Positions 3,728-61,699 of a DNA stretch of 64,000 nucleotides are shown here, in pieces. The first letter of the stretch is position 1. Each line of letters starts with the position of its first letter. The notes under the pieces are model-generated. The model was given only the letters and a program-made list of their open reading frames with translations, had not been told where the DNA came from and made no database searches. Source of the stretch: an uncultured virus (IMG/VR IMGVR_UViG_3300006173_000005) (taxonomy: Duplodnaviria; Heunggongvirae; Uroviricota; Caudoviricetes); the IMG/VR virus record IMGVR_UViG_3300006173_000005. One strand, 5' to 3'. The position numbers were made by a program, and so were the translations under genes.

Positions 3728-3787
3728 ATGCTTGTCCTATGGACTAGAGTGTCCGTAGGACTGGCTTGTCACTAAAGGACAGAGCTT

Positions 3788-24645: not shown

Positions 24646-25043
24646 GGTCTAAGCTCTACTGAAATGAGCATACGACCTGGTACGGTATCAATAATCTCAT
24701 TGACGATATACATACGGTTGTGATAAAACCACCTATCCGCACGCTGAATATCAAGCGTAACGTCACCAATGACGACAACATATTGCTTTGAGACATCCAT
24801 CGCTACGTCGCGCTGATCGCTACTAGTACGCGGATTTTGAGCCACTTCAAGACGAACCATTTGCGGTGCAAGTTGATAATTCGTGCGCGTAGCTTCGTCA
24901 CGACGCGTAATCACAATGGCACTAGAGCGTTCGTCGATACGACGCACGGTATCAAAGTCGCGGCGCTCTGTATTTCCACGCTGTGCATTTGGAGCGGTAA
25001 GCCCTAGCCATGTATCGGCGCGATTGTTTCCAGTGCCACTCAT
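24642..25043 (-). CDS. Head closure/stopper-like protein
   Basis: LDIQRADRWFYHNRMYIV motif, position. Confidence 0.65.
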   Translation of the reverse strand: MSGTGNNRADTWLGLTAPNAQRGNTERRDFDTVRRIDERSSAIVITRRDEATRTNYQLAPQMVRLEVAQNPRTSSDQRDVAMDVSKQYVVVIGDVTLDIQRADRWFYHNRMYIVNEIIDTVPGRMLISVELRP

Positions 25044-34979: not shown

Positions 34980-35507
34980 TCATTTTATCGCCACCAATGT
35001 AAAGTCTCTAATCGGAATATGATAGTGCCCCTGTTCAATCATTATACCATCTTGATTAAACCCGGCCTCTACTACGAGCTTAGTTAAGGTTTCTGGTGTA
35101 TATCCGTATTTGTGTCCCATAAGTGGATGGACGTAAGGTTCGCCATAAATGCCCTGAATTCCCATTTGCTCACGCGAATATCCCTCAGGAGGGTCGATGT
35201 AGCCGAGATAGACCCGACAACAATAATCCATGTTGGGTTGATCGAACTCAATTACGCCACCTTCGTCAAGTATCTCGTAGCACTCTTTAATTAAGATGAG
35301 TGCATCTTGGCGCGTAAGATGCTCTACGAAATGCGACATAAGTATAAAATCAAATCGCATCACCTTAATCGCATCTGGCAAAGGCGGAACCGTCGCTACT
35401 ACATCGGGATGGTTATCTGTATCGCCGTCGAGCATAATCCAGTCGCCACCCCAATGCCATGACCCGCTCCCTATGCACAACTTCATAGTCCGGTATTCCG
35501 TACCCAC
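34980..35507 (-). CDS. Class I SAM-dependent methyltransferase
   Basis: KLCIGSG, FDFILMSHFVEHL, ILDEGG. Confidence 0.8.
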   Translation of the reverse strand: MGTEYRTMKLCIGSGSWHWGGDWIMLDGDTDNHPDVVATVPPLPDAIKVMRFDFILMSHFVEHLTRQDALILIKECYEILDEGGVIEFDQPNMDYCCRVYLGYIDPPEGYSREQMGIQGIYGEPYVHPLMGHKYGYTPETLTKLVVEAGFNQDGIMIEQGHYHIPIRDFTLVAIK

Positions 35508-35914
35508 GATACATCATCGCCCAATTCGGCCCATTCTCGCTCAATGGCTTTCAATTCATCAGATCGCTCTTTAATTTGTTTGGCGGTTAAATCAAGACGC
35601 TCTTGCTCTTGACGCTTTATCAATTCGTCGTGTCTCCTCATCTGATTGGAGAGCAACATAGCCTTATCAAATTGCTCGTTTTTCATAGTCTCGCCTTACG
35701 CTCATCTTCTTCGTATTGCCACTGCGCTAACTCACACGCCTGTTGGTACTTCAAATTGATATTCTCTTGATTGTGGCGCTCGTTAAGCTCCCATTGTTCT
35801 CGCTCGTGGCGTCTAATAATTTCGCTTTTGGATACAGGTTTAACCTTTTGATACACAGTTGTCATCAAATCTGTTGCGCCTGTTACAAGCTTCCGATCTG
35901 ATGGTATTATCCAA

Positions 35915-36817
35915 TCAAATATTCGCATCAACCATAACCTCCAACCATTTATTTACCACTTTATCCGCTCTGTACTCACCAGCAATCTTTGAGCCGCGCT
36001 GCGCATCCTTAAACCGAACCTGCGAACTTTCCATTGCCGTTAGCGCATTGCACCATTCCTCAATCGAAGTCGCCATATAGTCAAGTCCAACTTCGACATA
36101 GGATAGTATCGGCGTACCAATTGTCGGCAAGCCCAACGACCAGCTTTTGAGTAGCTTGTTGGCACTTTTGCTCTCTACCCACTCTTTGCTCCATGCGCCG
36201 TCAAATACGTAGGGCATTACCGCAATGTCATGCTGCACCATGAGTTTATCGACAGTGGCTAAATCCCATTGCTTAAGCGTTACACCGCCAAGCTGTACTA
36301 AATTATCGCATATTTGCTTCGCTTGAGGATTGAGCAGATTAGTGATAATGGTCAACTCAACGCCAACCCAGCGACAAGCCTCTGCACACGCACGCACATG
36401 ATAAACGTTATCTGGACTTCCTGTCCATACCGCCGTGCGTAACATGTCTTCATGATGGGACTTAAATGGACTGGACTGCTCAGCGTCAAGGCAGTCTGGA
36501 ATAACAACCGAACCCGGTAGTTTCTGCTGCTTGTACCTTGTGTCTACGGTGATGCAGTCTACATCAGCAATGGGTAGCGGTATCATGTCATCTAGGTCAA
36601 ATATCACACGAATACCTTGACTGCGCCATTTGGCTATCTCAGCATCAAGGTTGTAGCGCTTTTGTACAACAACCACATGGGTATCGTTGCTGACCTCATT
36701 GAACGAAACCCGATGACCAAGTTTGGTAAGCTCATCGGCAACCTTGTAGACGCGAAGTCTACTGCTGGCTGCGCTTCGGTCACTCATTGGAAAGTAGGAT
36801 ATGTTCACAGTTGCCAC
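35915..36817 (-). CDS. Glycosyltransferase-like protein
   Basis: ASSRLRV, IFDLDD, KSANKLLKSWSLGLPTI. Confidence 0.75.
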   Translation of the reverse strand: MATVNISYFPMSDRSAASSRLRVYKVADELTKLGHRVSFNEVSNDTHVVVVQKRYNLDAEIAKWRSQGIRVIFDLDDMIPLPIADVDCITVDTRYKQQKLPGSVVIPDCLDAEQSSPFKSHHEDMLRTAVWTGSPDNVYHVRACAEACRWVGVELTIITNLLNPQAKQICDNLVQLGGVTLKQWDLATVDKLMVQHDIAVMPYVFDGAWSKEWVESKSANKLLKSWSLGLPTIGTPILSYVEVGLDYMATSIEEWCNALTAMESSQVRFKDAQRGSKIAGEYRADKVVNKWLEVMVDANI

Positions 36818-37076
36818 CCATTTTGTGCTGTCGCTTCTTCGAGTTCGGTACTATCCCACTCTTCTAGTTCGCTTTCGTATCGCCATTCGGTACGATGTTT
36901 TTCATAAATTTGCAATTCAATGGTTCGTATACCAAGATCGTTTCGGTAACACAAATTCGGTGATGTCAATAATGCCACGCATATATACCATCCTTCATCA
37001 CGAAACTCTTGCGCAACAGTAGTTTGTCCATAAAGTATACCGGGATTAGATTTCAATTGAACGAATAAATCTGACT

Positions 37077-38045
37077 TCATGCAACCTCCACTATGCTCAA
37101 TAGCTCTACCAATCGTTCACGGCAAGCATCAAAGCTAAACGTATTTTTTATTGCCAGATAGCCATCTTCTATTAACACCTTTCGATTTCCACGATTGATA
37201 TATTTATCAAAGCGGAATACGCCCTGATCGCCCTCAAATGGATCAATCAAAAATCCCGGTGCATCATCACACCAATTACTACCAAGTGTAGGTGTGCCAA
37301 CCATTGCTGCAAGAACTTGCTGTCTGCCGTAGCTGTGGCGCATATAAATATCGACGCAATATTGCGCCCGTGCCGTCAAATCAACCATTTCAGTAAACGG
37401 AATGTGTCCCAACCAAGTGCATTCAAGACCTGCTAAATCCGCATAACGCTTTGTCCATTCTCGCGCCGCCACATAAACGACACGTAGTTTAGTCATGCGT
37501 GATAACTCTTGGACTGCAGCCACATTGCACATCGTATTGGCTGGTGACATGCTATGATCGAGCGTAATAATATAATCCTCTTTAGGTAATTCTCGGAATG
37601 GCAGGAACCACTCTGTAGCCCCTATCGGAGAAGGAAAATAATGAGACTTTTTGCCAAGCAATGCACTATATACATTGCAGTCGGCTAGTGTGCGTCCACC
37701 AATAGCATCAGCAGCAAGCAGTTGACGATGAATGTTTAGCCACTCAGGATGGTCGAGTACAAGGTCAATGGGTGCATCAGGACACGCCAGCACATAGCAG
37801 GATGGATCAACCTGCTTAATCTGCTCAACATGGATGCTATCAGCAGTATGAAAAATGTTAACAATACAGACCTTCGCACTGCGTACCACGTCGGGCATAT
37901 TGCGAATGTCACTTGTGTTCCAGCGTATCCACTCAGAACCGACTATCTCTTGCCAGAGACCGACTGACACGGATGGAGATTTAGCTGGCATCCCCGAACT
38001 TTCCGATTCGCCCCAGACTAATACGACATCATTGAAGTTAATCAC
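37077..38045 (-). CDS. Glycosyltransferase-like protein
   Basis: HSYGRQQVLAAMVGTPTL degenerate GT-B C-terminal motif. Confidence 0.65.
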   Translation of the reverse strand: MINFNDVVLVWGESESSGMPAKSPSVSVGLWQEIVGSEWIRWNTSDIRNMPDVVRSAKVCIVNIFHTADSIHVEQIKQVDPSCYVLACPDAPIDLVLDHPEWLNIHRQLLAADAIGGRTLADCNVYSALLGKKSHYFPSPIGATEWFLPFRELPKEDYIITLDHSMSPANTMCNVAAVQELSRMTKLRVVYVAAREWTKRYADLAGLECTWLGHIPFTEMVDLTARAQYCVDIYMRHSYGRQQVLAAMVGTPTLGSNWCDDAPGFLIDPFEGDQGVFRFDKYINRGNRKVLIEDGYLAIKNTFSFDACRERLVELLSIVEVA

Positions 38046-38542
38046 CGTTTTATTGCGCTCCCTGCTACATTAACGCCATCGTTCATTTCGATTTCATAAC
38101 CCATTAGGCATTTAGTTTCATCAAACAATGACCGTAATCCATTATCAGAGTATCTAAAGTAATCCTTCGGGTACTCGTTTATCCCCCAATTGAACACGGT
38201 GACCACGATTAACAATCCGCTTGGTCTAAGAACCCTCGTCATTTCCGGTAATAATAACCAGGGTTTTTCAACGCAGTGGAGCATATTCCCACAAACAACC
38301 ACGTCAAAATATTCTGAAACTGGAAAACTATAAGGTTTGGATACTATATCAACATTAGGCCCCGGCTCAATATCCAAGCCCGTATAGCTCATGCCCAATC
38401 CATTGCAAAGCGCGCGGTAATCACCATTTATATTTCTGCTTCCCACATCGAGCACCTTTGGCGGAAACCTTGTTTTTGATAACAAAGGAAAAGGTATGCG
38501 CTTCAAATGCTTCTCCATGAACGCCATCGACTCAGTGTGCAT
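38042..38542 (-). CDS. Class I SAM-dependent methyltransferase (Methyltransf_11-like)
   Basis: VLDVGS, YTGLDIEPGPNVD, EMTRVLRPSG, YPKDYFR. Confidence 0.9.
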   Translation of the reverse strand: MHTESMAFMEKHLKRIPFPLLSKTRFPPKVLDVGSRNINGDYRALCNGLGMSYTGLDIEPGPNVDIVSKPYSFPVSEYFDVVVCGNMLHCVEKPWLLLPEMTRVLRPSGLLIVVTVFNWGINEYPKDYFRYSDNGLRSLFDETKCLMGYEIEMNDGVNVAGSAIKR

Positions 38543-45342: not shown

Positions 45343-45379
45343 TTGACAACTAATCATAGTGGATATATACTAGTAATCA
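45343..45379 (+). promoter_or_regulatory. Early promoter P1
   Basis: TTGACA-17-TATACT followed by AGTAATCA. Confidence 0.85.
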
Positions 45380-45410
45380 TAGTCAAATAAACAAGGTAAC
45401 AGGGTGTTCT

Positions 45411-45599
45411 ATGTCTAAGCTCTCTGAACTGAACCAAGCCAATAAACGTATCGCTGAAAAACTCTCAACTGGCAAGTTTAAGGATACTGGCGTTAAGTAT
45501 AGTGCGGAACAAGCAGTGGCCGATCATATCAATCCTGCCCTACGCTTGACTGCACAAACATCAACCAATGGTCAATTAACATGGAAACAAGGTAGCTAA
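45411..45599 (+). CDS. Small early protein
   Basis: First ORF after P1. Confidence 0.65.
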   Translation: MSKLSELNQANKRIAEKLSTGKFKDTGVKYSAEQAVADHINPALRLTAQTSTNGQLTWKQGS

Positions 45600-45601
45600 C
45601 A

Positions 45602-45850
45602 ATGAACAACAAATATTTCTGCCCTTGCTGTGGACATTTTTACGGTCAAGATGATAGCGATGGGCATATCGGCGTTGATAAGATGATTAGAGTACGGGAT
45701 AACAGCATCGTACTTATGCTTACATGCTGGAATAGCGATTGTACTTTAAACACAGCAACAACAACCATACGCAGTCTTGAGAATGGCGATTTATGCGAAC
45801 GCTTTGAGTGTTGCGAATCGTTTGATTATCAGACCGGATTATCTAAATAA
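45602..45850 (+). CDS. Cys-rich zinc-ribbon-like early protein
   Basis: CPCCG...CWNSDC. Confidence 0.6.
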   Translation: MNNKYFCPCCGHFYGQDDSDGHIGVDKMIRVRDNSIVLMLTCWNSDCTLNTATTTIRSLENGDLCERFECCESFDYQTGLSK

Positions 45851-46000
45851 GGTCGTGATATGAACAGAAAACAGCGTCGGGCAGTTCTACACAGTCAATT
45901 GGTTGTCAAGCGATACATAGCCCAAAACTCTATGTATCATGCGTGGGAAGTTGCCCTACACCATTTGTCAAACCTTTATGGTCATAAGGATTTATAAATC

Positions 46001-46660
46001 ATGTATAACAAACCGGATGAATTCGCTAACCTAGAGGAAACACTTATCCATTGGAAGTATCAATATGAGCGCTATCATACAACGCGATTGCGATCATGGC
46101 GGACGATTACAGGTAAATGGATTGATCCCGCTTGCTTGTTTCAATTGGTAGAACTTGGACTAGCTACAGTCAAACTATTTAACGATATGTGGCTAGACAA
46201 TCAATTCTATTTAACCGACTTAACCCCATTGGTTGATCCCGATAACGACTATTGGTGGCAAAACGACAATAACGATTATCCACGCGATACAGTTGAGTAT
46301 ATTGTCTATCTTGAGCCGCGTGTATGGGGCAAAAGACGCCAATTAGCCATTAATCTAATCTACGATCTAGGCAATGGTCATAATCCCCTAGATCGTATCA
46401 ATTCAGGATTTTATGACATTGTACTGGATGCTGATATTTATCAATTCATCATGACCGAAGTCAAGCCGTTTAACGAAACATTGCAATCTAATCTTGCCTG
46501 GTCGAGTATTCAACGTGAAATAGGCGAATTGAACCAAAAAACCGCTGACGTATATGCCTTAACTGATAATTTCAAATTAGAAGCTAATAAGCTATCGAAT
46601 TGGCGCAAGTCCCTGATAGATACAATGCTAATTTTGGTTTATGGGCGCAGCGATAACTAG
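46001..46660 (+). CDS. Hypothetical early protein
   Basis: RBS AAGGA. Confidence 0.65.
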   Translation: MYNKPDEFANLEETLIHWKYQYERYHTTRLRSWRTITGKWIDPACLFQLVELGLATVKLFNDMWLDNQFYLTDLTPLVDPDNDYWWQNDNNDYPRDTVEYIVYLEPRVWGKRRQLAINLIYDLGNGHNPLDRINSGFYDIVLDADIYQFIMTEVKPFNETLQSNLAWSSIQREIGELNQKTADVYALTDNFKLEANKLSNWRKSLIDTMLILVYGRSDN

Positions 46661-46683
46661 GTAGTACTTTAGTACCAATTCTA

Positions 46684-46720
46684 TTGACAACCAATCAAGA
46701 GCACTTTATACTAGTAATCA
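46684..46720 (+). promoter_or_regulatory. Early promoter P2
   Basis: TTGACA-17-TATACT AGTAATCA. Confidence 0.85.
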
Positions 46721-46757
46721 TAGTAAGGTTGATGATTAATAAGGAATAAGGTGTTCT

Positions 46758-46919
46758 ATGTCTAAGCGCTCACTGTTCAAGATGATTTTAGCGGTTGCAG
46801 AACTAGACCGCGAATTCGCAATCTTTTACATCGAATCTGCGATCAAACAAGCTGATATTTGCCCCGATGAAAACGTTAGCTATTACCATGAGCTATTAGC
46901 GCTCATTGAGGGTAATTAA
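46758..46919 (+). CDS. 53-aa early protein (below ORF-track cutoff)
   Basis: MSKRSLFKM...; start context GGTGTTCTATGTCTAAGC identical to gene at 45411. Confidence 0.7.
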   Translation: MSKRSLFKMILAVAELDREFAIFYIESAIKQADICPDENVSYYHELLALIEGN

Positions 46920-46924
46920 CCAAT

Positions 46925-47221
46925 ATGACACAATCACAGCGTGCTTTACTTGCAGTGGCGGATATGACACAAGGTGAGTATCTAACCTATCTTGAAGATG
47001 AGTACATGATGCTGCTAAAGAGTAGCAATCCTTATCAGGCAATGGATAGCCTAATCGAATTATCCTCATTTATTGCTCGCATTGAGGATATTACACCAAA
47101 GCAGTTTAACCACTATCGCAAGTTGTATTTACAGGAGAATCCGTATACACAAATCGAGGTTATCGCCAGTCCATTGCCAATTGCAGAAGAATCAACCGAA
47201 GTGCAGTTAAGTTTATTCTAA
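46925..47221 (+). CDS. Hypothetical early protein
   Basis: C-terminus QLSLF resembles a sliding-clamp-binding motif. Confidence 0.6.
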   Translation: MTQSQRALLAVADMTQGEYLTYLEDEYMMLLKSSNPYQAMDSLIELSSFIARIEDITPKQFNHYRKLYLQENPYTQIEVIASPLPIAEESTEVQLSLF

Positions 47222-47307
47222 ATTTAACGGAATAGGCCATAAGTGAGGACTTATGGCTTAACCCGTGCAATTTAGCACGATAAGCAAAGTATGAGGGAAT
47301 AACTATC

Positions 47308-47796
47308 ATGTCTTACTCAAGTAAAGTTAACAACTGGCGTCGTGAATTTATGGACAAGTTCGGAAAAATGGCGGTGAAATATACTCCATATACTGAACAT
47401 GGCAATCTGATCGCCTACGATCAAGCGCGGGAAGTGGCTAAATTGATTATGCGTCATGCTGCTACTCACCAACGATTGCAAGAGGAAGAATGCAACGGCG
47501 TTGATTTTATGGCCCCATATTCATCAGCCTATATGCTGAATCTATACAATAATGATCGCCCCGCTCATACAGCGCTTATGGCAAAAATTTCACAGCGCTA
47601 TGATCGTTGGGAGAAACGTCTACAGCACCGCCAAGAACTAATTGAACGTCGTATCTTGCAACTTGCTGCACAATTTGGATTTAGTGCTGTGTTTGAAGGC
47701 GATCCACGCGGGGCAACCGTCAAAATCATATTTCCCGATGGGTCATACGATGACTCTGCACATGAGGGCTGGTGCGTTCCGACCAATAATCGATAA
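47308..47796 (+). CDS. Conserved phage hypothetical (GDPRG family)
   Basis: ECNG...FEGDPRG motif. Confidence 0.65.
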   Translation: MSYSSKVNNWRREFMDKFGKMAVKYTPYTEHGNLIAYDQAREVAKLIMRHAATHQRLQEEECNGVDFMAPYSSAYMLNLYNNDRPAHTALMAKISQRYDRWEKRLQHRQELIERRILQLAAQFGFSAVFEGDPRGATVKIIFPDGSYDDSAHEGWCVPTNNR

Positions 47797-47875
47797 TCTC
47801 GTTTAATCCCTCACACACTGCGCATTAAGGTAATAGTGCGCAGTAGTGAGCGAATAAGCATAAGGATAACGCACC

Positions 47876-48232
47876 ATGACCACCAACGATATTGAAATTT
47901 TAGCCCTAGCCTATAAAGCCTCTCAAGCATGGCGCGAATATGCTGCAATGCGTGCTATCGTGGATCGGGCAGAAGAGTATATGAATTCAATTCCATTGCT
48001 AAATAATCCTAAAGACAATTTTGATGAATACGAAGCTGCATACAATATCTTGTGCGATTTTAGGGTAACACTAGACTGCTACGCCAGTGTGCGCGATAAC
48101 GCTTTTCTTAACTGGCGTCACAAACTGCCAGAGATGAATAGTTTCATCGCTTACAATCGCTGTAACACAATGGCGCGACAATATGAAACACTGCTACAAA
48201 ACAGCTATCTACAGTTTATCAAGTCGGTTTAA
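47876..48232 (+). CDS. Hypothetical early protein
   Basis: RBS AAGGA. Confidence 0.6.
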   Translation: MTTNDIEILALAYKASQAWREYAAMRAIVDRAEEYMNSIPLLNNPKDNFDEYEAAYNILCDFRVTLDCYASVRDNAFLNWRHKLPEMNSFIAYNRCNTMARQYETLLQNSYLQFIKSV

Positions 48233-48544
48233 GGACTATACGCTCATGTATAAGCAGATTTATAAAAATCAATATGGTATGCACCGCAAAAATAAGACGC
48301 TATGTACTCCTGATGATAGCTGCCCTGTTGGTGGACGTAGTAACTTACATCACGTTATGCAAGCTGCTTATAAAACCTATGTATACGAGCGCTGTTATCT
48401 GTGTGATCCACTAACTTTTATGGATCGTTATCCGGTTGAGTACATTAAGCAGCACATGGACTATTTCAAGCAAGAAATTAGAAACACTTATCAGCTATCC
48501 AATAGCTTCAAGTATAGCAAAGCAGCACAAGGATAAGGTGTACT

Positions 48545-49633
48545 ATGTCTCAGGTGGAATTAAAACAAGTAAACATATCAGATGTTCGAATCCGGTTTAA
48601 CTACCGAGAAGAATATAATCAAGAATTCCTCTCATGGTTAACTGATCAAATTGCCACTAAGGGTTTTAATCCCGCTAAACCATTGGACGTTTACCTTGAA
48701 GACGGTATCTACTGGATTGTAGATGGCAATACGCGCTATACAGCCGCTATGCGTGTCGCACTAGCAAAGCCCTATACACTCTATCCAGAATGTCCCATAT
48801 GGGTAGCTGTACGCCGACATAAGCCTAGCGACGCTGAATTTGCACTATACAGCGCGCAGGGCAACGAAACTAACCGTGAGGTTGATATTGTCTCTCAAGC
48901 AAAGAATTATCAACGCATCCTAGACGGCGGTCTGACCATTGCCGATATTTGTAAGCAACTAAACCACACGACTACCTATGTTGAAGATAGACTTGCTATC
49001 CTTAAACTGGCAGATGGTATTCAGGATTATGTCAAAAAAGGCAGTTTAACTATTAAGTTTGCCGTAACCATGTCCAAGCTAAATTTCAACCGCCAATGGA
49101 TTGCATTTAAGGCTTACAACTTACGCAATCTCAAACTGTGCGATTTTGAAGATATGGTCAACGATTTATACATGCAGCAAGAAAAAGAGAATCAAAAAGA
49201 CTTCTTTGGTCTGATGTCAATTGAAGAAATAGAGGCAAAAGCGCAAGAACTCGCCAGCACTATACAGACCACCAAGACACCAAAGATCAGCGACTTAGAA
49301 GCACAGCTAGAGCTAGAGCGCAAAGCACGGCTAGAGGCTGAACAAAAAGCACTAGCCGAAGCACAGGAGCGCGAACGCATCTATAAGGCTGGCGAACAGC
49401 TATACAATCGCTATACAGCCCTGCTTAAAGAATTCGAGTACCAAAAGACTACACTCAATCTACTCGAAGTCCATAACGCAGCACTTGAGATACAACTAGA
49501 GACACCAAAATCGAAATCTACCAAACGCACCAGCAAAGCTAAACAGGCTTCTCTCAATTTCGACGAGATGACAGAAGAAGAAAAGATTAAGTTTATCGTC
49601 AACAATCCAGACCTAATCAATCCGAAGGACTAA
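48545..49633 (+). CDS. ParB/Srx-domain protein with HTH and coiled coil
   Basis: NYRE, PLDV, WIVDGNTRYTAA, N..R.V...QAKNYQRIL..G.T..DI...L. Confidence 0.85.
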   Translation: MSQVELKQVNISDVRIRFNYREEYNQEFLSWLTDQIATKGFNPAKPLDVYLEDGIYWIVDGNTRYTAAMRVALAKPYTLYPECPIWVAVRRHKPSDAEFALYSAQGNETNREVDIVSQAKNYQRILDGGLTIADICKQLNHTTTYVEDRLAILKLADGIQDYVKKGSLTIKFAVTMSKLNFNRQWIAFKAYNLRNLKLCDFEDMVNDLYMQQEKENQKDFFGLMSIEEIEAKAQELASTIQTTKTPKISDLEAQLELERKARLEAEQKALAEAQERERIYKAGEQLYNRYTALLKEFEYQKTTLNLLEVHNAALEIQLETPKSKSTKRTSKAKQASLNFDEMTEEEKIKFIVNNPDLINPKD

Positions 49634-49639
49634 ACTATC

Positions 49640-50143
49640 ATGACCACCACATTACTACTACCCGCTACAGCCTCACGCACCAAACACGAACGCCGGATGA
49701 TTCTTTGGGCGCTTGCCAAAGCTGGCAATAACGTCAAAGGTAATAGTCCACGCCAGTACGATACAAATTGTCATTATCCTGTTATTTATCTGCCTGCGCC
49801 TATACAGCCTATCAGCGACGATCCATTTGAATCCGATGAAGCTGATATCGTAGCGACCTACGATGGGGCTTATTGCAGCATCCGCGTACTTATCGGTAGA
49901 CTGCTGCCACAAAGCACCCAAAACGCTCTCTTTACTCGCATCGGTACAATTGGCTCTCATATCGCCCGATGCACCGTTAATCTGTCCACAAACGCCAATA
50001 ACACCGTACTGGTTATTACACCTAACAAAACTATACAGGCCCGTGAAATCGACACCCTAAAAGCACTGGCGGTTTCCGTTGTACGTGGCTTTATCATTGA
50101 ACTCGATAACACACCTGTCGCTATACAGACCAGTCTATTCTAA
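49640..50143 (+). CDS. Hypothetical early protein
   Basis: RBS AAGGA; ends QTSLF. Confidence 0.6.
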   Translation: MTTTLLLPATASRTKHERRMILWALAKAGNNVKGNSPRQYDTNCHYPVIYLPAPIQPISDDPFESDEADIVATYDGAYCSIRVLIGRLLPQSTQNALFTRIGTIGSHIARCTVNLSTNANNTVLVITPNKTIQAREIDTLKALAVSVVRGFIIELDNTPVAIQTSLF

Positions 50144-50163
50144 GTTGTAACCATTGGCGACAG

Positions 50164-50200
50164 TTGACAAGTAATCATTAAACGGCTATACTAGAAATCA
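50164..50200 (+). promoter_or_regulatory. Early promoter P3
   Basis: TTGACA-17-TATACT AGAAATCA. Confidence 0.85.
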
Positions 50201-50220
50201 AGATAAATTGGGAGGTAAAC

Positions 50221-50436
50221 ATGAATCGCACCGTCAAAGAAATTATTAGGCTGCACAAGTCCGGTTACACAAACCATCGTATCGCAGAAGCGCTGAATGT
50301 AGAGCATGGACTTGTGCGCGACACCATCAATAAGTTGTACGACCAGAAAGCCCAAGTAGGTCAACACAAAGACCTAGCCAAGAATACGGCTAATTATCGA
50401 ACCGCATCAACACGCAAAGCAAAGAACAGGGGTTAA
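50221..50436 (+). CDS. Small HTH protein
   Basis: IIRLHKSGYTNHRIAEALNV. Confidence 0.75.
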   Translation: MNRTVKEIIRLHKSGYTNHRIAEALNVEHGLVRDTINKLYDQKAQVGQHKDLAKNTANYRTASTRKAKNRG

Positions 50437-50664
50437 CCATGAAGCGAATTGCTATTGCTACATTCATTCTATTTGTCGCATTGTTCTGTCTGACAATGCA
50501 AAGCGACACAGAACTATCTTATACATGCCAACTTAACAAACAGCAACTACAAGTCATCGCGCTACTCAAATCGCGTAGTGACACACCTGCCAATTTTATC
50601 AGCGCAGAACAAGCGCGATTCTGCGATGAAAACAAAATTCGCTCCATGATGAATATTTCACACA

Positions 50665-51243
50665 GTGAGCCTGTCTACAATGACCAGTAGTACTATACTT
50701 GCAAAACCTATACAGTCTACAAATGTAGACGGCGCTATGCAGGAACTACGAGCGCTGCTCCTACTCAGTAACGCACCAGCCGTCGAAGTAGACTACTATA
50801 CAGCCCGATTAGACGCACTGGCGTTCGTTAGCCTGCCAGATCGCCAGCCCGATGAACCTGACATAGCAATCGCATGGGCTTATGGTCTGCTTTCAGTGAT
50901 TGGCGTAGACCCCTATTATCCTGCCCAGAAGGGCGACCAAGCCTTCTGGTTATCCGATGGTGGTCAACTACTGGCAGGCGTGCTATACAACGCCTATACG
51001 GGCCGATTGATAGCCATTAAAGATGCAGCGGAAATGTTGGGAATATTCCCACAGAACATCGGGCGCTGGGTAAAGCCCGGAATGCTGACTGCTGTACCAC
51101 TACCGCGCTGGACGCAGACCAAGTGGAGCGCCTATTACCGTGAACGTCGTGGGGATACTGAGCGCGTCCATTATATGCTCGTGCGCAGTGAAGTGATGAA
51201 GCTCAAACGGCATCGCACCCAAGCAAAAAAGCACAAGGAATAA
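50665..51243 (+). CDS. Protein with excisionase/MerR-like HTH
   Basis: AIKDAAEMLGIFPQNIGRWVKPGML. Confidence 0.6.
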   Translation: MSLSTMTSSTILAKPIQSTNVDGAMQELRALLLLSNAPAVEVDYYTARLDALAFVSLPDRQPDEPDIAIAWAYGLLSVIGVDPYYPAQKGDQAFWLSDGGQLLAGVLYNAYTGRLIAIKDAAEMLGIFPQNIGRWVKPGMLTAVPLPRWTQTKWSAYYRERRGDTERVHYMLVRSEVMKLKRHRTQAKKHKE

Positions 51244-51645
51244 CACTATGGACACCGAATGGTATCTACGAGGTCGGGGTGTCACGATTAAGGCAGGTGC
51301 AGTGTCCAAGTTTGGCGCAAAGTTTGAGCGCGATACGAAGGGTACACTGGCCCGTGACACCGAACCTGATGCAGAGAAATTCTCAGTATGGCTATACGAG
51401 CCGGTGAGTAATCGGTATATCGACAATGTGAAAACTGTCGTTATACCACGTGAATTCGTTGAATTTGAGCAGGGAGGATAAATGTTTCTATTACTAGTAT
51501 TATCCATCGTGGTTCATTTTGGTCTATACATCCATCGTCGTGCGCAGTTCCAAAAGCGCGCCAACATTCCTATGCCAACGCATCAACTACCGAAGTATCG
51601 CTAAGTCTATACTGTCCATATTGCACAAAGAAGAAATATCTAATC

Positions 51646-51882
51646 ATGACCAATCATATTACTCATCAAGCGCTCGATCAGAGTGAAACTTACTGCTATT
51701 CATGGTGGGAAGATGGCACAGTTACCCGCAGTTTACTTGATCGTCCTACCGCACACAGAGATGAACACGGCTATTACGTTTATGGCTCACTTCGCATCAA
51801 TCCACATGTACCAGTGATTCCACCGCCCACTTGGAACAATGTCGAATTCAAGTCCCGCATTGCAACTAAGTATGCCAAATAA
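51646..51882 (+). CDS. Hypothetical early protein
   Basis: Start context AATCATGACC shared with neighbours. Confidence 0.6.
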   Translation: MTNHITHQALDQSETYCYSWWEDGTVTRSLLDRPTAHRDEHGYYVYGSLRINPHVPVIPPPTWNNVEFKSRIATKYAK

Positions 51883-51965
51883 TCTCCACAATCACTAACA
51901 ATCATTGGGGGCTGCGCATCCATGATTACGCAGAATTTCAGCAATAAGAAGGAAATCTAACTATC

Positions 51966-52259
51966 ATGTCTGACAATCTACAGGTTTACGTTATCACTTG
52001 GCACGGCGTTGTTGTGGCAATATTCACCGACCAACGGCAAGCCCTGTTACATGCACGTGGACTAGCGCGTACAGAAATGGGTGATTATCGAGAGCAAGGG
52101 TCTCCTGAACATTTCATGAACTTCTATAACGAAATAGGAGAAAACGCACCAATCACTTTATCTGGACATCTAGTTAATGCACCAGACAGATTAGATGAAG
52201 CCTATCACGATGCTGCCATCTCGTATGAAATAGCTCAACGTATCGTATCAGGCTACTAA
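51966..52259 (+). CDS. Hypothetical early protein; candidate sRNA target
   Basis: RBS AGAAGGA; last gene before convergent terminator. Confidence 0.65.
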   Translation: MSDNLQVYVITWHGVVVAIFTDQRQALLHARGLARTEMGDYREQGSPEHFMNFYNEIGENAPITLSGHLVNAPDRLDEAYHDAAISYEIAQRIVSGY

Positions 52260-54090: not shown

Positions 54091-54528
54091 CTAACCATGA
54101 CTACCTACCAATCGGTGATACATCACAATACTACCAGCAACCGCAACGTTATATGACATTAGATTGACACTCTCGATTGATACCACACACTGACAAATCG
54201 ACAACGCATCAGGCGATAATCCATGATCTTCTGCGCCTAACAAATAGACGCATTGTTTGGGATGCACAAAAGCACTCAGGGTAACTCCACCAAATTCAAC
54301 ACCAACTAGCAGACAATCAATCGGTCTATGTGTCTGAAAATCATCCAATGTCTCGTAGTGTCGCAGTGGAATATGTCGCGTAGCCTTGCAAGTATCACTG
54401 GCTTGCGCCTTGTAGCGACGACCAATAGTGAAGATACCAGACGCACCGAGTTGATATGCACTGCGCCATAGCGTGCCAATATTCTCTTCTGTTTTCGGGT
54501 GATAAATGCCAATCTCAAAATATCCCAT
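54091..54528 (-). CDS. SpoU/TrmH/TrmL-family SPOUT RNA 2'-O-methyltransferase
   Basis: ENIGTLWRSA, LLGAEDHGL, SYNVAVAGSIVMY. Confidence 0.9.
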   Translation of the reverse strand: MGYFEIGIYHPKTEENIGTLWRSAYQLGASGIFTIGRRYKAQASDTCKATRHIPLRHYETLDDFQTHRPIDCLLVGVEFGGVTLSAFVHPKQCVYLLGAEDHGLSPDALSICQCVVSIESVNLMSYNVAVAGSIVMYHRLVGSHG

Positions 54529-54761: not shown

Positions 54762-55688
54762 TCACTCATTGCCGCCTCCGATTAATGGCACATTGCGATT
54801 AATGAGTATACGCCCATTATCATCAATAGACGCCCCGCTCAGATAATCCTCGCCAGCATAAGCCGCAAGGTCACGAAACGTAGGCCCAATGATATAAACC
54901 ACATCATGTACAATTTGGGCTTGTTCATCAGTCGTCAACTCTCGTTTCATTGACTTCATACGTTTCGCACAAGCCTTATTCGCCTCTTTAAGTGCAGTCA
55001 ACGCATAATACCCTAGACGATCACGATACTTATCTTCGTCTTTGGGTAGCAATCCAAAGTATTTCACAATCTCCGCTTTGCTCATATCAAATAGACCACG
55101 ATTTTGGATAGCGCCTATCTCCCCAAAGTTAGGCGTATGTTCTTCGTGAGTAGCCAGTAGTGCGTTAGTCAATTCTTTTTGAGACTGTTTGCTTTCAACC
55201 CGTGCCGTTGCACGGTCTTCATCGAAACCTTTTAGCAGGTAAGCATTGATAGACTTAGTTGTTTCTAGCTTGGCTTGTTCGTCTGCAAGTTCCTGACGGC
55301 GCGTTTGACTAGCAAAATAGAGTTGCGCCTCAGCAATTATCGCTTTACTTGCATCGCTGTTCATGGCAATGAGATAACACGCCAACCGAGATAACTTGTA
55401 ATCGTCAATCTCTCGGATAACGCTATTGCCTAATTCGACCTTTTTCGCGATAGTAAGAAAATGTCTATCCGAGCCGCTTCCTGACTTATTACAAGAGATG
55501 ATCGCTTTAGAGATAGACTTACTAAAATTTTCCCATCGGCTGTACTCATAGACAGGCATAAGCTCACGAGCATACCAATACTCGTTGCCATCATCGTCTA
55601 TATGCTTAATGCTCTCAAATGGAATGCGAAGCTGAGGGATTGCAAGTTGAATATCTGAGGGGTTTGTGTTACGATTCTTCTTGGACAT
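54762..55688 (-). CDS. DinD-like Bro-N protein
   Basis: FESIKH..GNEYWYARELM..Y.RWENF, LSRLACYLIAMN, YFASQTRRQE; start MSKKN after RBS AAGGAAG. Confidence 0.85.
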   Translation of the reverse strand: MSKKNRNTNPSDIQLAIPQLRIPFESIKHIDDDGNEYWYARELMPVYEYSRWENFSKSISKAIISCNKSGSGSDRHFLTIAKKVELGNSVIREIDDYKLSRLACYLIAMNSDASKAIIAEAQLYFASQTRRQELADEQAKLETTKSINAYLLKGFDEDRATARVESKQSQKELTNALLATHEEHTPNFGEIGAIQNRGLFDMSKAEIVKYFGLLPKDEDKYRDRLGYYALTALKEANKACAKRMKSMKRELTTDEQAQIVHDVVYIIGPTFRDLAAYAGEDYLSGASIDDNGRILINRNVPLIGGGNE

Positions 55689-55828
55689 GGAACTACATCT
55701 TCCTTGTTTACGCCGATAGTTGATCCTATCGGCTTTTTCGTTTATATACGCCTGTACCGTCTGGGCGGATAGAACGGCTAAACCCACGCGCCTAACTCGT
55801 GTCAAACTTTCGTCACAGGCAATCTTAA

Positions 55829-56386
55829 TTATACACCCCATCTGCAATAATTCAACGCATACAGCGTATCTGTCAACGCTTCATAACCTATCGCAATGTC
55901 AATCGCATCAAGTCTATCCATCCCACTGTAGAACAACCTTCGTTCTTTATAATCCATTTGACGCCGAAGCATAAAGCGTTCTAATTTCACGGTAGATGTA
56001 AAAACATCGCCAATCACCCGCTCTAACTTCCACTCGTAGCCTTTTTGTCGATGCCTATCCTTATTGGTTAATGCGTACACTAGTCGCCACAGGGTAGCCT
56101 TAACGCCCTTGCTTGGCTCCCAGTGCCCAGTATACCGAGGTTGTTCCCAATCATCGAAAAAGAATTGAGTGCGAACAATCGTATCATTCACAACGCGCAA
56201 ATTAGATTGCGGATTGAATTGAGGATACTTGCCTTTTACGTAACGATTGAACTCATACAGTTCGTGAACTAGATAATCTATTCTGCCGATGACATTGGAG
56301 CCGTATTCACTTTTAATCCAATTGCAAAATTGAACGTTTACATCAGGTGGATAACTGGAGATTGTGTTATTATTGAGTGCAGACAT
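55829..56386 (-). CDS. Hypothetical protein
   Basis: RBS AAGGA, own promoter and leader hairpin. Confidence 0.65.
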   Translation of the reverse strand: MSALNNNTISSYPPDVNVQFCNWIKSEYGSNVIGRIDYLVHELYEFNRYVKGKYPQFNPQSNLRVVNDTIVRTQFFFDDWEQPRYTGHWEPSKGVKATLWRLVYALTNKDRHRQKGYEWKLERVIGDVFTSTVKLERFMLRRQMDYKERRLFYSGMDRLDAIDIAIGYEALTDTLYALNYCRWGV

Positions 56387-56494
56387 GAGGCTACTATCCT
56401 TGTGTCTATGAGATTACTTGCATGTTGAGTGCGGTAATCTCGTTTCATTTGATGCTTAATTGTACACCCAAATCCACTTACGCGCTACAACAAC

Positions 56495-56575
56495 AAAAGC
56501 CGCCTACGTGTACCTCCGCAGGCGGGTCTTATCCACAGTCACCATAACCGTCAAGTCGAGGTGGTTGCGAATGAT
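56495..56575 (-). ncRNA. Predicted sRNA-3 (~80 nt)
   Basis: -10 TACAAT (56587-82), GCAACCACCT 5' motif, CCGCCTGCG/CGTAGGCGG terminator + TTTT. Confidence 0.55.
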
Positions 56576-56592
56576 GAGTTAATTGTACACCT

Positions 56593-56660
56593 AAAACACA
56601 AACGGCGATACGTGAATATCGCCGCTTATGCCTGTCAAACATTAGCAAAGGAGGTTGCTG
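56593..56660 (-). ncRNA. Predicted sRNA-2 (~68 nt) with CCUCCU loop
   Basis: TGG-TATAAT; AGCAA-CCTCCT-TTGCT hairpin; CGGCGATA/TATCGCCG terminator. Confidence 0.65.
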
Positions 56661-56683
56661 GTAATCATTATACCATGAAAACG

Positions 56684-56713
56684 AAAACCACTAACTAGTT
56701 AGGTTAGTGGTTT
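56684..56713 (-). terminator. Terminator of tRNA-Met transcript
   Basis: AACCACTAAC...GTTAGTGGTT TTCGTTTT. Confidence 0.75.
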
Positions 56714-56747
56714 ATCCGAGTCGTGGAGCCTCTTTAATATTGGGTTG

Positions 56748-56819
56748 TAGCGCGGAAAGGAATTGCACCTTCGACCTTCTGGTTATGAGCCAGACGAGCT
56801 ACTACTGCTCTACCCCGCC
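56748..56819 (-). tRNA. tRNA-Met (CAT)
   Basis: Cloverleaf GGCGGGG..TCTGG-CTCATAA-CCAGA..GAAGG-TGCAATT-CCTTT; one acceptor mismatch, no encoded CCA. Confidence 0.85.
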
Positions 56820-56958
56820 ATAAACTCGCTCACGGTTTTACAAAGACGTGAGCGATAACCTTTGCTGCCATTTACCGTCATACAGTGACCATAGTAACGC
56901 ACCTAGCAGATACGTCCTATATCCTGCTGCTTAGGTCAGGATACTTACTACATGGTTA

Positions 56959-56987
56959 ATCATAATCCCTACTGCAAAATCTGTCAA
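56959..56987 (-). promoter_or_regulatory. Promoter for leader RNA + tRNA-Met
   Basis: TTGACA-17-TATGAT. Confidence 0.8.
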
Positions 56988-57058
56988 CCGCACAAAAAAA
57001 CAACCCGCAATCCTCTATGGGTATCGCAGGTTATTACGCACAGTCATCGTGTGCGATG

Positions 57059-57128
57059 TTGGGATGGCAAGAATCGAACTTGCGACGACGGAATCGCATC
57101 CGCTGTTTTACCACTAAACTACCACCCA
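57059..57128 (-). tRNA. tRNA-like RNA (Gln-like body) with 6-nt anticodon loop TGCGAT
   Basis: Intact D arm and GCAAG-TTCGATT-CTTGC T arm; two acceptor mismatches. Confidence 0.7.
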
Positions 57129-57179
57129 CGTTCACAGTATAAATCTACAGTTGCGCACCTGTTTTACTCCGTGAACTTG

Positions 57180-57254
57180 TCGGGCTGCGCAGATTTGAAC
57201 TGCGCTCCTATAGGCTCTAAATCCTATCGTGCTAACCGTATACACCATTACCCG
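57180..57254 (-). tRNA. tRNA-like RNA (Pro-like body) with 8-nt anticodon loop ATTTAGAG
   Basis: Intact D arm and CGCAG-TTCAAAT-CTGCG T arm; C1-G72, A73; two acceptor mismatches. Confidence 0.7.
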
Positions 57255-57336
57255 CATACATGGGACCAACGACCAAACCCTACAACCCATGTACTGCTCA
57301 GTACGATATTGGTCTCATGCGCCTATCATACATCAT

Positions 57337-57424
57337 AAAAACGGAACGCGCCACACTCTATTGGGGGAGTAGGTGGCGCGTCCGCTATCGTAAAGCAATC
57401 AGAAGGAAACTAATCATCACGACC
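57337..57424 (-). ncRNA. Predicted sRNA-1 (~88 nt), antisense to translation-initiation regions
   Basis: TTGACA(57459-54)-17-TAGACT(57436-31); GC-rich terminator + TTTTT. Confidence 0.7.
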
Positions 57425-57634
57425 AATTACAGTCTACTTGGTTATCGTTTGCGTGTCAACAAATACCCTATAACCGATACAATGGCAAGTGTTACAGCGA
57501 ATGTTACACAGTGCCAGGTGAGTAGTTCCCCAGGGCTTACTGAGAAAACGGGAACCATACCATCCCTACGATGAGTGTAATCAGGCACGCGATAATAATC
57601 GCTAATACATTGTAAATATGTTCACGCTTGATTG

Positions 57635-57763
57635 TCATAGATTACGGAACCCTCCACTTACTTTTGCCAACCAGTTGACGACAATAACACTAACGATAAT
57701 TAGCGTCAAAATGGCCCCAGCGAGGCCACCGCAGACTAGCAATAATAAATCGTGTACATTCAT
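57635..57763 (-). CDS. 42-aa single-TM peptide
   Basis: MNVHDLLLLVCGGLAGAILTLII...; ATGA-coupled to upstream gene. Confidence 0.55.
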   Translation of the reverse strand: MNVHDLLLLVCGGLAGAILTLIIVSVIVVNWLAKVSGGFRNL

Positions 57764-58518
57764 GGCATCGTGGTCGTTTCAGGGGGTGCAGTAGGCTTCT
57801 GGGCGTCAAGCTGGTTCTGTAAATCTCTCACTTGACCTTGTAACTGCCTTACTTGCGTCTCAAGCTGAACCACTTTCTCATTAGCTGTTGCTAAATCTTT
57901 TTCGACTTGAGCTTTTTCAGTCACCGCCGTCGCGTACTGCCTTTCAAGTTCCACGATACGCGCCTTCGCCAACTCAAGTTCAATCTGAGTAAGTCTCAAT
58001 TTCTCTAGCAGTTCGGACTTAGTAGTCTCAAGTTCGACCTGTGCTTCGGTGAGCGCCTTTTGCGTTCCTCTTAGTGCATCATCCATACTGCCCACCTTTT
58101 CCACAAGCTCGGCTATTTGGGCATCCCGCGCTTGGCTATCCAACGCTCGCTGCTTGAGCAAAGAATCAACTTCACTGGTAAACTTCTTTATCTTATCTTC
58201 GTTGTCTTCAACCCGTTTGTGGTAGGCTTGGTTTTCAGTGAGAACCGCTGCTTTTTGTGCAGCGAGTTCCCGGTTTGCATCTGCGAGGTAGGTAAGTACG
58301 GATGTCATCTGACTGCTAAACTGATTGACCGTTGTCAGCGTATCTTGAGCAGTGCTTTGCGTGGCCTGCGCCGTCACTTTCGCTTCAATCGCTGGCAGTT
58401 TTAATTGATCAATCAGACGTTCAAAATTCTTTTGATTGCGTACTAGAAATAAGGTAATGGGGCCACCAACTGCAATTACACTACCAATGAGTGTCCCAAT
58501 AATAACATTAACGTCCAT
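57760..58518 (-). CDS. Membrane-anchored long coiled-coil protein
   Basis: N-terminal TM then heptad-rich helix. Confidence 0.75.
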   Translation of the reverse strand: MDVNVIIGTLIGSVIAVGGPITLFLVRNQKNFERLIDQLKLPAIEAKVTAQATQSTAQDTLTTVNQFSSQMTSVLTYLADANRELAAQKAAVLTENQAYHKRVEDNEDKIKKFTSEVDSLLKQRALDSQARDAQIAELVEKVGSMDDALRGTQKALTEAQVELETTKSELLEKLRLTQIELELAKARIVELERQYATAVTEKAQVEKDLATANEKVVQLETQVRQLQGQVRDLQNQLDAQKPTAPPETTTMP

Positions 58519-58864
58519 TGGATGTCACCCGCTGGATCATTTGTGGAAGCAAAGTCAAATCGGATTTGACGATAAATCCCTGTGCGCCTAAATTGATTAA
58601 AGTAGTCATCGAGTCTTCTTGTAAAAAACCCGTGACGATAATCATCGGGATACGCAGCGTCGTAAACTTAGGTTCATTCAGCGCTAAGAGGGCGTTGTAC
58701 TGCGGCAAATTGTAATCCGCGAGTATAATGTCCCACCGCTCCTCTAATGCGTCTAAAAACGCTTTTTCAGTGGCAACAAGAAGCGACGTATACTCTAACC
58801 CGCGTAAACTGTAACGGATTAGCTGCACATCGTTAGGATTGTCCTCTAGGATAAGTATACGCAA
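58508..58864 (-). CDS. Single-domain response regulator (CheY-like receiver)
   Basis: ILILEDN, DIILADYNLP, IIVTG, GAQGFIVK; upstream TTGACT-17-TATGCT. Confidence 0.9.
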   Translation of the reverse strand: MRILILEDNPNDVQLIRYSLRGLEYTSLLVATEKAFLDALEERWDIILADYNLPQYNALLALNEPKFTTLRIPMIIVTGFLQEDSMTTLINLGAQGFIVKSDLTLLPQMIQRVTSNGR

Positions 58865-61366: not shown

Positions 61367-61402
61367 GTTGACAAATCCCTTTACCTATCCTACACTGTAT
61401 AC

Positions 61403-61465
61403 GCCAATGAGTAACCTGCGTAACAAAACACGCGAGATATCAACCACCTCGCGTGTTTCTATTTT
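61403..61465 (+). ncRNA. Predicted counter-transcribed sRNA (~63 nt)
   Basis: TTGACA(61368-73)-17-TACACT(61391-96); AAACACGCGAG/CTCGCGTGTTT terminator. Confidence 0.55.
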
Positions 61466-61699
61466 ACCGCTATTCTAAAGTACTATCCCAATCAGGATGT
61501 AAGTCTTTGAGCGCACTTTGAACCAGCGCATGATCCCAATATCTACTTTCACCTACGCACATCCAGCCGTGCTTTTGCAGCGTTCTAATCAATCCAACGA
61601 TGAGTGAATACAAATCCACACTGTCATTCAGATTGTCAAGTTGAATTAAACTATCCATCACCGTATCGAATATCTCTGTACCATCTACGCAATTCAAGC

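Follow-up and report, generated by a model that had tools for sequence, protein, structure and literature searches.

We analysed a 64,000-nucleotide (nt) stretch of DNA, here called the window, from an uncultured tailed phage of soil (IMG/VR record IMGVR_UViG_3300006173_000005), in which about 1 kb of the minus strand forms a non-coding RNA island. The island is real, with an anatomy far above chance. It consists of five consecutive units, U1 to U5, each with a promoter (P1 to P5), an RNA and a terminator. Three units are candidate small RNAs (sRNAs) and two carry tRNA or tRNA-like genes. The analysis rests on the sequence of one genome, from which the anatomy, the folds and the complementarity with its null models were read directly. 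In the direction of transcription, the features are as follows.

57431..57459, minus strand: P1, a sigma-70-type promoter, TTGACA-17-TAGACT, with its −10 box at 57436
57337..57424, minus strand: U1, an 88-nt sRNA candidate, its +1 inferred from the −10 box
57325..57330, minus strand: P2, a lone TATGAT (57330) directly behind terminator 1, without a −35 box
56994..57318, minus strand: U2, comprising a leader hairpin, tRNA-like a, a spacer hairpin, tRNA-like b, a trailer hairpin and a U7 terminator
57179..57254, minus strand: tRNA-like a, called by ARAGORN; RF00005 score 32.9 bits
57058..57128, minus strand: tRNA-like b, called by ARAGORN; RF00005 score 48.8 bits
56959..56987, minus strand: P3, TTGACA-17-TATGAT (11 of 12), with its −10 box at 56964, right behind terminator 2
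56676..56952, minus strand: U3, comprising a 133-nt leader with three hairpins, tRNA-Met and a terminator
56747..56819, minus strand: tRNA-Met(CAT), called by ARAGORN; 60.2 bits
56667..56675, minus strand: P4, an extended −10 box, TGGTATAAT (TATAAT at 56672), right behind terminator 3
56592..56662, minus strand: U4, an sRNA candidate of about 70 nt, with a 5-bp hairpin, loop CCUCCU, and then a long terminator
56582..56590, minus strand: P5, a TGTACAATTAA-type −10 box (TACAAT at 56587)
56492..56576, minus strand: U5, an sRNA candidate of about 85 nt, with a 5′ anti-AUG, a spacer, CCACCUC, a weak stem and a terminator

A first-pass annotation, made from the letters of the window alone, had proposed this architecture, and its signals were recovered. 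All five minus-strand −10 boxes lie at the positions given above, perfect TTGACA boxes stand at 17 nt upstream of the first and the third, and a hairpin with a U-tract ends every unit, the next −10 or −35 box following within about 0–15 nt. In our reading, no −35 box is recognizable for P2 and P5, and because P2 lacks one, U2 may be transcribed by read-through from U1 rather than from P2. The −35 box of P1 lies inside the last codons of a small membrane-type open reading frame (ORF), 57442-57588. As the annotation had also stated, the island holds no credible protein gene: its only plus-strand ORFs with a Shine–Dalgarno (SD) sequence are a mini-ORF of 2-3 codons and ORFs of 27 and 128 codons, the last running antisense across both tRNA-like genes, and none was judged credible.

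The strict signals are strongly concentrated in the island. A strict terminator scan over both strands of the window found eight sites, four of them inside the island, while among 500 dinucleotide shuffles of the island 486 contained no terminator, 13 contained one and one contained two. Two TTGACA-17-TAxxxT promoters are present in the island; 11 of 2000 shuffles had one such promoter and none had two. A generic promoter scan of 55500-58500 returned 8 promoters for 6.0 expected, which is not above chance. Scanning the whole window for a −10 box, an anti-SD tract and a terminator in combination yielded three units, all three in the island. Folding z-scores were −6.1 for U1, −5.3 for U4 and −4.1 for U5, mostly owed to the terminators. 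The only sequence that the units have in common is a short −10 motif of 11-17 nt. The −10 motif TGTAYAATTAA precedes U5 (56589), a 185-aa gene (56466) and a BRO gene (55835), all on the minus strand, and occurs nowhere else in the window; the promoters that carry it are possibly a co-regulated class. Just past the U5 terminator, 56471-56491 shows an inverted 21-nt likeness (81%) to the 3′ end of tRNA-Met (56744-56764), probably by chance. Low-depth contigs of one soil DNA run matched 57029-57179 with no differences and 57246-57396 with one, but this run may be the source sample itself. Among the sequencing runs listed for the window there was no RNA run, and two soil DNA runs (shares 0.10 and 0.05) covered only short pieces of it.

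U1 is predicted to fold into an interrupted 5′ hairpin with the loop UUUCCUU, followed by a long terminator hairpin with a C-rich tract in its loop and by the U-tract. Its 5′ domain is complementary to the SD sequence and AUG of genes in a rightward cluster (45412-52259, plus strand) of small genes without assigned function, which lies behind three TTGACA promoters and is labelled early-type here. The likeness was first spotted by eye: for about 28 nt, a stretch that takes in the SD and the AUG, the leader of gene 51966 is similar to the complement of the U1 5′ domain. Three sites are predicted as targets of U1; their proteins have no known family, and searches with two of them gave none that was usable.

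51940..51972, plus strand: predicted U1 target 1, SD and AUG of gene 51966-52259, 97 aa
49618..49646, plus strand: predicted U1 target 2, SD and AUG of gene 49640-50143, 167 aa
51612..51651, plus strand: predicted U1 target 3, SD and AUG of gene 51646-51882, 78 aa

Several pairing models placed these starts high among the partners of U1. With RNAduplex, the starts of 51966 and 49640 ranked third and ninth among non-self sites, and with a strict duplex model run over both strands of the 64 kb they ranked first and fifth. Cofolding of full-length U1 with 87 start regions of the phage gave 49640, 51646, 51966 and 50221 as top partners. A blind scan, which cofolded U1 with 3654 windows from both strands, placed the starts of 51966 (−19.7), 49640 (−17.3) and 51646 (−16.0) first to third among distinct non-self sites; the next site reached −13.7, and the scan had a mean of −1.0 with a standard deviation of 3.0.

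Few shuffled versions of U1 did as well. Over the 87 regions, 3 of 400 shuffles that kept the core were as good, and among 1500 shuffles that preserved hairpin and loop, 19 equalled the best site, 5 the second best and 8 the sum of the top three. The cofold null gave 3/309 and 3/309 shuffles as good, and 1/39 with the full RNA. U1 also fits its own genome better than that of a related phage, G001, where its best value over 91 starts was −11.9, compared with −19.1, −18.4 and −15.4 at home. No plus-strand gene lies opposite U1, which is therefore not the cis-antisense RNA of a present gene.

A number of points weigh against U1 acting on these genes. The match was seen by eye first and the tests were picked afterwards, and with three RNAs tried a chance of about 1% turns into about 3%. 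The 87 starts were hand-picked, a few being off by some bases, and energies shift with window placement (from −12.7 to −19.7 for 51966). The genome-wide null built from hairpin-destroying shuffles is weak: two of the top three U1 sites were starts, which 6 of 96 shuffles equalled, and in the prefiltered genome-wide scan 70 of 96 such shuffles bound as strongly as U1. Clustering of the targets in the early region is not significant alone (29/309 cofold shuffles and 193/1500 shuffles reached it), because those genes share an RBS (ribosome-binding site) motif. Part of the pairing region of U1 resembles the repeat of three early promoters and may be a DNA operator, and the upstream operon, too, would naturally end at terminator 1. 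Homologs of the island were not found, hence no covariation. Finally, U4 and U5 were no better than shuffles against the 87 phage starts (406/500 and 423/500 as good). On these counts, the targeting of early-type starts by U1 has moderate support, with a chance probability of about 3% after correction. The first-pass annotation had proposed a battery of trans-acting repressors aimed at the phage's own early genes, host genes or competing phages; the aim at early genes gains specific, moderately significant support for U1 alone, U4 and U5 staying at shuffle level.

Core-kept shuffles of U4 and U5 gave the same picture over the 87 starts (307/400 and 311/400 as good). The best cofold start of U4 was that of gene 2621, which we read as ParM-like (−15.0, equalled by 3 of 31 shuffles). 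The genome-wide cofold scan covered U1 and U4, and genome-wide the 2621 start was the sixth distinct non-self U4 site, no better than unrelated places. An arm of the U4 terminator (56624-56636) is an exact 13-nt complement of BRO coding sequence (55551-55563), with a net value of only −4.6 after the cost of the U4 stem. The top partners of U1, U4 and U5 included neither the start of the BRO gene nor that of a small hydrophobic ORF, 57635-57763, and the start of ORF 57442-57588 was absent from the genome-wide top lists, though it lay outside the 87-region set. The hairpins of U2 and U3, compared with the 87 starts without shuffles, gave no standout.

In U5, CCACCUC sits in a weak interrupted stem of the minimum-free-energy fold, not in a loop. 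An 11-nt stretch of U5 can pair with the terminator at 61441-61451, in its loop and 5′ arm; the value was −11 for these parts in the nascent state and −0.6 once the terminator was folded. Such 11-mers are frequent (about 45 listed), and this one was kept as a lead only. Near it (61368-61470, plus strand), a TTGACA-17-TACACT promoter at 61368 runs against a leftward operon, and its RNA of about 65 nt would end at the two-way terminator 61428-61460; this RNA shares an 11-mer with the 5′ domain of U5. A pattern for host targets of U5 was present in 29 of 301 genomes of the putative host order, a set that does not include the true host genome, with a similar count for the control and no shared gene start. 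U4 and U5 DNA gave six short matches in the same 301 genomes, read as chance. Both U4 and U5 probably belong to the same class of sRNA as U1, with targets perhaps in the missing part of the phage, in the host or in other phages.

ARAGORN and cmscan with RF00005 identified three tRNA or tRNA-like genes in the island, two in U2 and one in U3, all three above the cut-off of 29 bits (60.2, 48.8 and 32.9). The first-pass annotation had assigned tRNA or tRNA-like RNAs to two units; the genes themselves number three, not two. The tRNA-Met(CAT) has a 7-nt anticodon loop, one G.G non-pair in the acceptor stem and no encoded CCA, and it matches phage tRNA-Met genes at 75-86%. We take its A11-U24 pair and weak 1:72 pair to be initiator-like, and it probably functions as an initiator-type tRNA. 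The remaining two lack the 7-nt loop and paired acceptor stem of a canonical tRNA. tRNA-like a has C1-G72, intact D and T arms, an 8-nt anticodon loop and an acceptor stem with two non-pairs at its base; tRNA-like b has U1-A72, intact D and T arms, a 6-nt anticodon loop on a 5-bp stem (one base short) and two acceptor-stem non-pairs. Neither encodes CCA, and as to isotype, their best matches were of mixed types at 76% or less. The 6-nt loop was read unchanged in a low-depth contig of soil run X2, possibly the source sample. All five non-pairs of the three cloverleaves fall at acceptor-stem pairs 5-7, with D and T stems complete; the value for this clustering, (7/21)^5 or about 0.004, is a hand figure, post hoc, that ignores detection bias. 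tRNA-likes a and b thus appear to be tRNA-shaped RNAs incapable of normal decoding, whether decoys, processing scaffolds or decaying genes.

A homolog search in related phages, suggested by the first-pass annotation, found no relative carrying the island. Compared with 50,697 phage records, the island gave 284 matches, and the 20 listed were all in the tRNA region. The two-part pattern of U4 had no match in viral contigs; its 16-mer had 47 matches in 19 distinct contexts, none with a terminator downstream, and the 18-mer of U1 had 24, all in one unrelated coding context. With Rfam cmscan (E<=10, 55500-58000), only tRNA and two chance matches were obtained, and no sRNA match, as the annotation had expected. 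Likenesses to Box C/D, SAM-I, c-di-GMP and SRP RNAs, seen by eye, were dropped without Rfam support.

G001 is the closest phage compared (71 kb, 63% complete), with a head-protein match of 76% and the structural module in common. It carries neither island DNA nor a tRNA, including at the matching position; relaxed-threshold ARAGORN calls on it were rejected as noise. Four other capsid-related viral records are structural fragments, of which three were scanned for terminators. In two metagenome-assembled genomes (MAGs), the surroundings of the capsid genes, 120 kb in G002 and 80 kb in G355, showed no island. The unit scanner returned three units in G001, two distinct ones in the 120 kb of G002 and none in the 80 kb of G355. 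G002, labelled Aggregatilineales, also holds three low-scoring tandem tRNA genes (Ser, Arg, Trp) with odd T loops (C62, L126 2162-2399); this degenerate trio is unrelated to the island.

One of the G001 units (47046-47150) consists of a promoter, an anti-AUG, a 5-bp hairpin with the loop CUCCUCU and a terminator. It is cis-antisense to a leader ORF of 21 codons; the stop codon of this ORF overlaps the GTG start of the next gene, which in turn precedes a gene for a primase-helicase. The region as a whole (C1, 47011-47150) shows, in a phage of Chloroflexota type, a CopA/tap-like copy-control layout in which the leader ORF is coupled to what is probably a replication gene. Another candidate cis unit, 300 nt off at about 47401-47470, lies opposite the start of a 73-codon gene. 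The G001 units are analogues of the island units, not homologues, and do not show conservation of the island. Judging by these cis units, anti-RBS RNAs are evidently in use in this phage group. By analogy they suggest that the island units may have arisen from cis units of this kind, and hence a route by which trans-acting RNAs arise.

Downstream of the island, three genes follow on the same strand.

55829..56386, minus strand: the gene after the island, 185 aa, a singleton
54762-55688, minus strand: a BRO-N antirepressor-type gene, which follows the 185-aa gene
54091-54528, minus strand: a SpoU/TrmH-family RNA methylase (E 3.7e-20), 2.2 kb downstream of the tRNA genes

The 55829 protein had zero relatives among 5.8 billion proteins; neither it nor the 49640 protein had relatives in viral contigs, and the BRO gene had matches in two contigs. 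The operon that runs into the island is headed by a stand-alone response-regulator receiver domain (58508-58864, minus strand); it also contains two small hydrophobic ORFs and a gene for a membrane-anchored coiled-coil protein.

A profile scan of 20 proteins revealed a tailed-phage gene set in the window, comprising terminase, portal, major head protein, endolysin, BRO/Ant-type antirepressors and a ParB-like protein. A second scan, of 25 proteins, included XRE-type helix-turn-helix (HTH) genes and the SpoU RNA methylase, and no integrase was among the proteins of either scan. A partition protein of PHROG 691, the product that we read as ParM-like, is encoded at 2621-4150 on the plus strand (E 1.5e-21), with a small gene next to it, and suggests a plasmid-like prophage. 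The phage is tailed, probably temperate and perhaps plasmid-like in life style. The window makes up most of a 64,787-bp source contig, beyond which the phage genome probably continues. Its head protein has a 34% match in G002, and a capsid match was found in 3 of 401 genomes of the Anaerolineae class; on this basis, a host in the Anaerolineae (Chloroflexota) is plausible but weakly based. In the three early-type promoters (45343-45385, 46684-46726 and 50164-50205, plus strand), a 12-nt repeat that is nearly palindromic occurs both within the spacer and at +1; it is likely an operator for one of the HTH proteins. Several glycosyltransferase- and methyltransferase-like genes were noticed by eye at 34980-38542 and 25040-26194 (both minus strand), located between the terminase and portal genes and behind the head genes.

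The explanation that we favour, and hold on balance to be probable, is that U1 is a trans-acting repressor of distal early-type genes, that U4 and U5 are RNAs of like kind, that the Met tRNA works and that the other two are non-decoding shapes. We infer transcription, repression and timing, as we do the host and the roles of U4, U5 and the tRNA-likes. The stacked promoter–RNA–terminator units of the phage would be transcribed by host RNA polymerase. The U1 loop UUUCCUU would seed on the AAGGA-type SD sequences of 49640, 51646 and 51966, and the weak 5′ stem would then unzip, covering SD, spacer and AUG (about 24-30 nt). The resulting duplex would block 30S loading, as c4 RNA of P1/P7 does on ant. 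Silencing might take place either in the lysogen or at the early-to-late switch.

Rather unlikely is an ordinary or decaying phage tRNA cluster, whose promoters and terminators would serve the tRNA genes and the operons on either side. The upstream operon would then have U1 as its 3′ untranslated region and terminator, U4 and U5 would be leftovers, for instance from cis-antisense units or from gene starts since deleted, and the U1 match would reflect chance or the relic of an inverted early-gene leader. Two of the three tRNAs are indeed defective, and G001 lacks the island at the matching position; in the tRNA-likes, however, every D and T stem is intact, as are the promoters and terminators, which have not decayed. 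U4 and U5 have no above-chance target and the genome-wide null of U1 is weak, but U4 and U5 each have a −10 box and a terminator of their own that enclose neither a tRNA nor an ORF. On the plus strand, the 5′ end of every sRNA has the look of an SD sequence and start codon, and G001 units of such build lie opposite real genes. U1 could nevertheless function today even if it began as an inverted copy, and the leaders that it fits are three different ones.

Quite unlikely, in our view, is an outward-aimed module, in which generic anti-SD RNAs (aR14/cuckoo- or RsaE-like) would damp host mRNAs or a superinfecting relative and the tRNA-likes would decoy anticodon nucleases, in the service of host takeover or exclusion. 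The accessible text of a review covers phage sRNAs that target the host or take part in superinfection exclusion (PMC12197685), and U4 exposes a bare CCUCCU anti-SD in its loop with no phage target, like the aR14 loops, as far as the accessible text describes them (PMC10746234). Two anticodon loops of abnormal length and the SpoU RNA methylase nearby would also fit. U1, on the other hand, fits its own genome better than that of G001, and the U5 pattern was no commoner than its control in the 301 host-order genomes. For U4 and U5, an outward aim is compatible with the explanation that we favour.

An extended version, which we regard as distinctly improbable, would make the island an RNA-only control panel of a Chloroflexota phage-plasmid. 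Its three anti-RBS sRNAs, each with a promoter of its own, would be former cis-antisense units like those of G001, freed of their sense genes, and would address separate operons: U1 the early cluster, U4 the partition operon (2305-2621) and U5 the terminator 61441-61451, via loop invasion. The two tRNA mimics, non-decoding by design with the elbow intact but anticodon loop and acceptor stem broken, would serve as nuclease decoys or as RNase P scaffolds releasing the hairpin RNAs between them. Protein-directed control, with TAATCAT-type repeats in the early promoters and in or beside P3, P4 and U1 as operators of a phage repressor and the likeness of U1 to early leaders due to shared DNA sites, is highly improbable. 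The motif does recur in a phage with XRE-type HTH genes: promoters 45343, 46684 and 50164 have direct repeats of it, one in the spacer and one at +1, and inverted copies stand at 57411, 56957 and 56662. At P3 and P4, however, it amounts to the −10 box with two more bases; the match between U1 and 51966 covers both SD and AUG, well beyond a 7-9-nt motif, and the 51966 leader has no exact copy.

If U1 is the trans-acting repressor that we favour, an island with three stand-alone sRNA genes, one of them with a named target set in its own genome, would extend multi-target anti-RBS control to a probable Chloroflexota phage. Few phage sRNAs have known targets, according to the accessible text of PMC12197685, and nearly all of these belong to enterobacterial or Vibrio phages. 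The tRNA-shaped RNAs, with a longer and a shorter anticodon loop side by side, would provide a natural test of the decoy idea.

The first-pass annotation had not recognized the island as a described locus, and our searches agree: there was no Rfam family but tRNA at E<=10, no homolog was found, and a literature search, with most subscription journals outside its scope, found no publication describing such a locus. The nearest known systems are c4 (P1/P7) and sar (P22), in which, as predicted for U1, the loop of a phage sRNA pairs at the RBS of an own gene and blocks translation; c4 RNA does so on ant, via loops pairing near the RBS (PMC12197685, accessible text). This loop complementarity was found in U1 only (about 1% of shuffles as good), not in U4 or U5. 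A BRO-N antirepressor-type gene lies close downstream of the island, yet the C4 covariance models of Rfam had no match in the island (cmscan E<=10). c4 targets a co-transcribed antirepressor operon, whereas the predicted U1 targets are three early-type genes at a distance of 5-8 kb. It is from the transcript of this target operon that c4 is processed, with RNase P; U1, in contrast, has its own promoter and terminator, and the island stacks three different seeds with tRNA genes.

The aR14/cuckoo sRNAs occur in tandem arrays. Their members (NfeR1, Alphaproteobacteria) carry an anti-SD in a hairpin loop and act by RBS occlusion, which the U4 loop resembles (PMC10746234, accessible text). The same text gives aR14 three identical CCUCCUCCC loops, while the island RNAs have one tract each, all different and none of them CCUCCUCCC. 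The island, moreover, has no Rfam match, is phage-borne and probably belongs to another phylum. The layout of CopA/tap-repA plasmid control, as given in the accessible text of PMC8053102, is matched by the G001 unit (47075-47150), and the island units have the same build. A sense leader ORF coupled to a downstream gene is present in the G001 unit and not in the island: opposite U5 there is only the 2-3-codon mini-ORF, coupled to no gene. The island units have no opposite sense gene and would therefore act in trans, if they act. Type I toxin–antitoxin control was rejected, the island having no credible plus-strand ORF for a small hydrophobic toxin and the starts of ORFs 57635-57763 and 57442-57588 being absent from the respective top lists given above.

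The tRNA cluster of T4 includes the stable RNAs species 1 and 2, and T4-type clusters, like the island, mix tRNA genes with structured non-tRNA RNAs in a dispensable region. Unlike these, the island has a promoter and terminator for each unit, anti-RBS tracts and two anticodon loops of abnormal length. The PeSL cassettes of T4-type phages also combine a compact sigma-70 promoter with a terminator stem-loop in variable regions, as the island does (PMC2839356, accessible text). PeSLs are, by the same account, repeated and sequence-related, drive ORFs and recombine, whereas the island units are unrelated but for the −10 box, and U1, U4 and U5 enclose no ORF. From its sequence, the island appears to work like c4 and sar and, for the U4 loop, like aR14/cuckoo, yet it is a member of neither group, and it is not a PeSL array.

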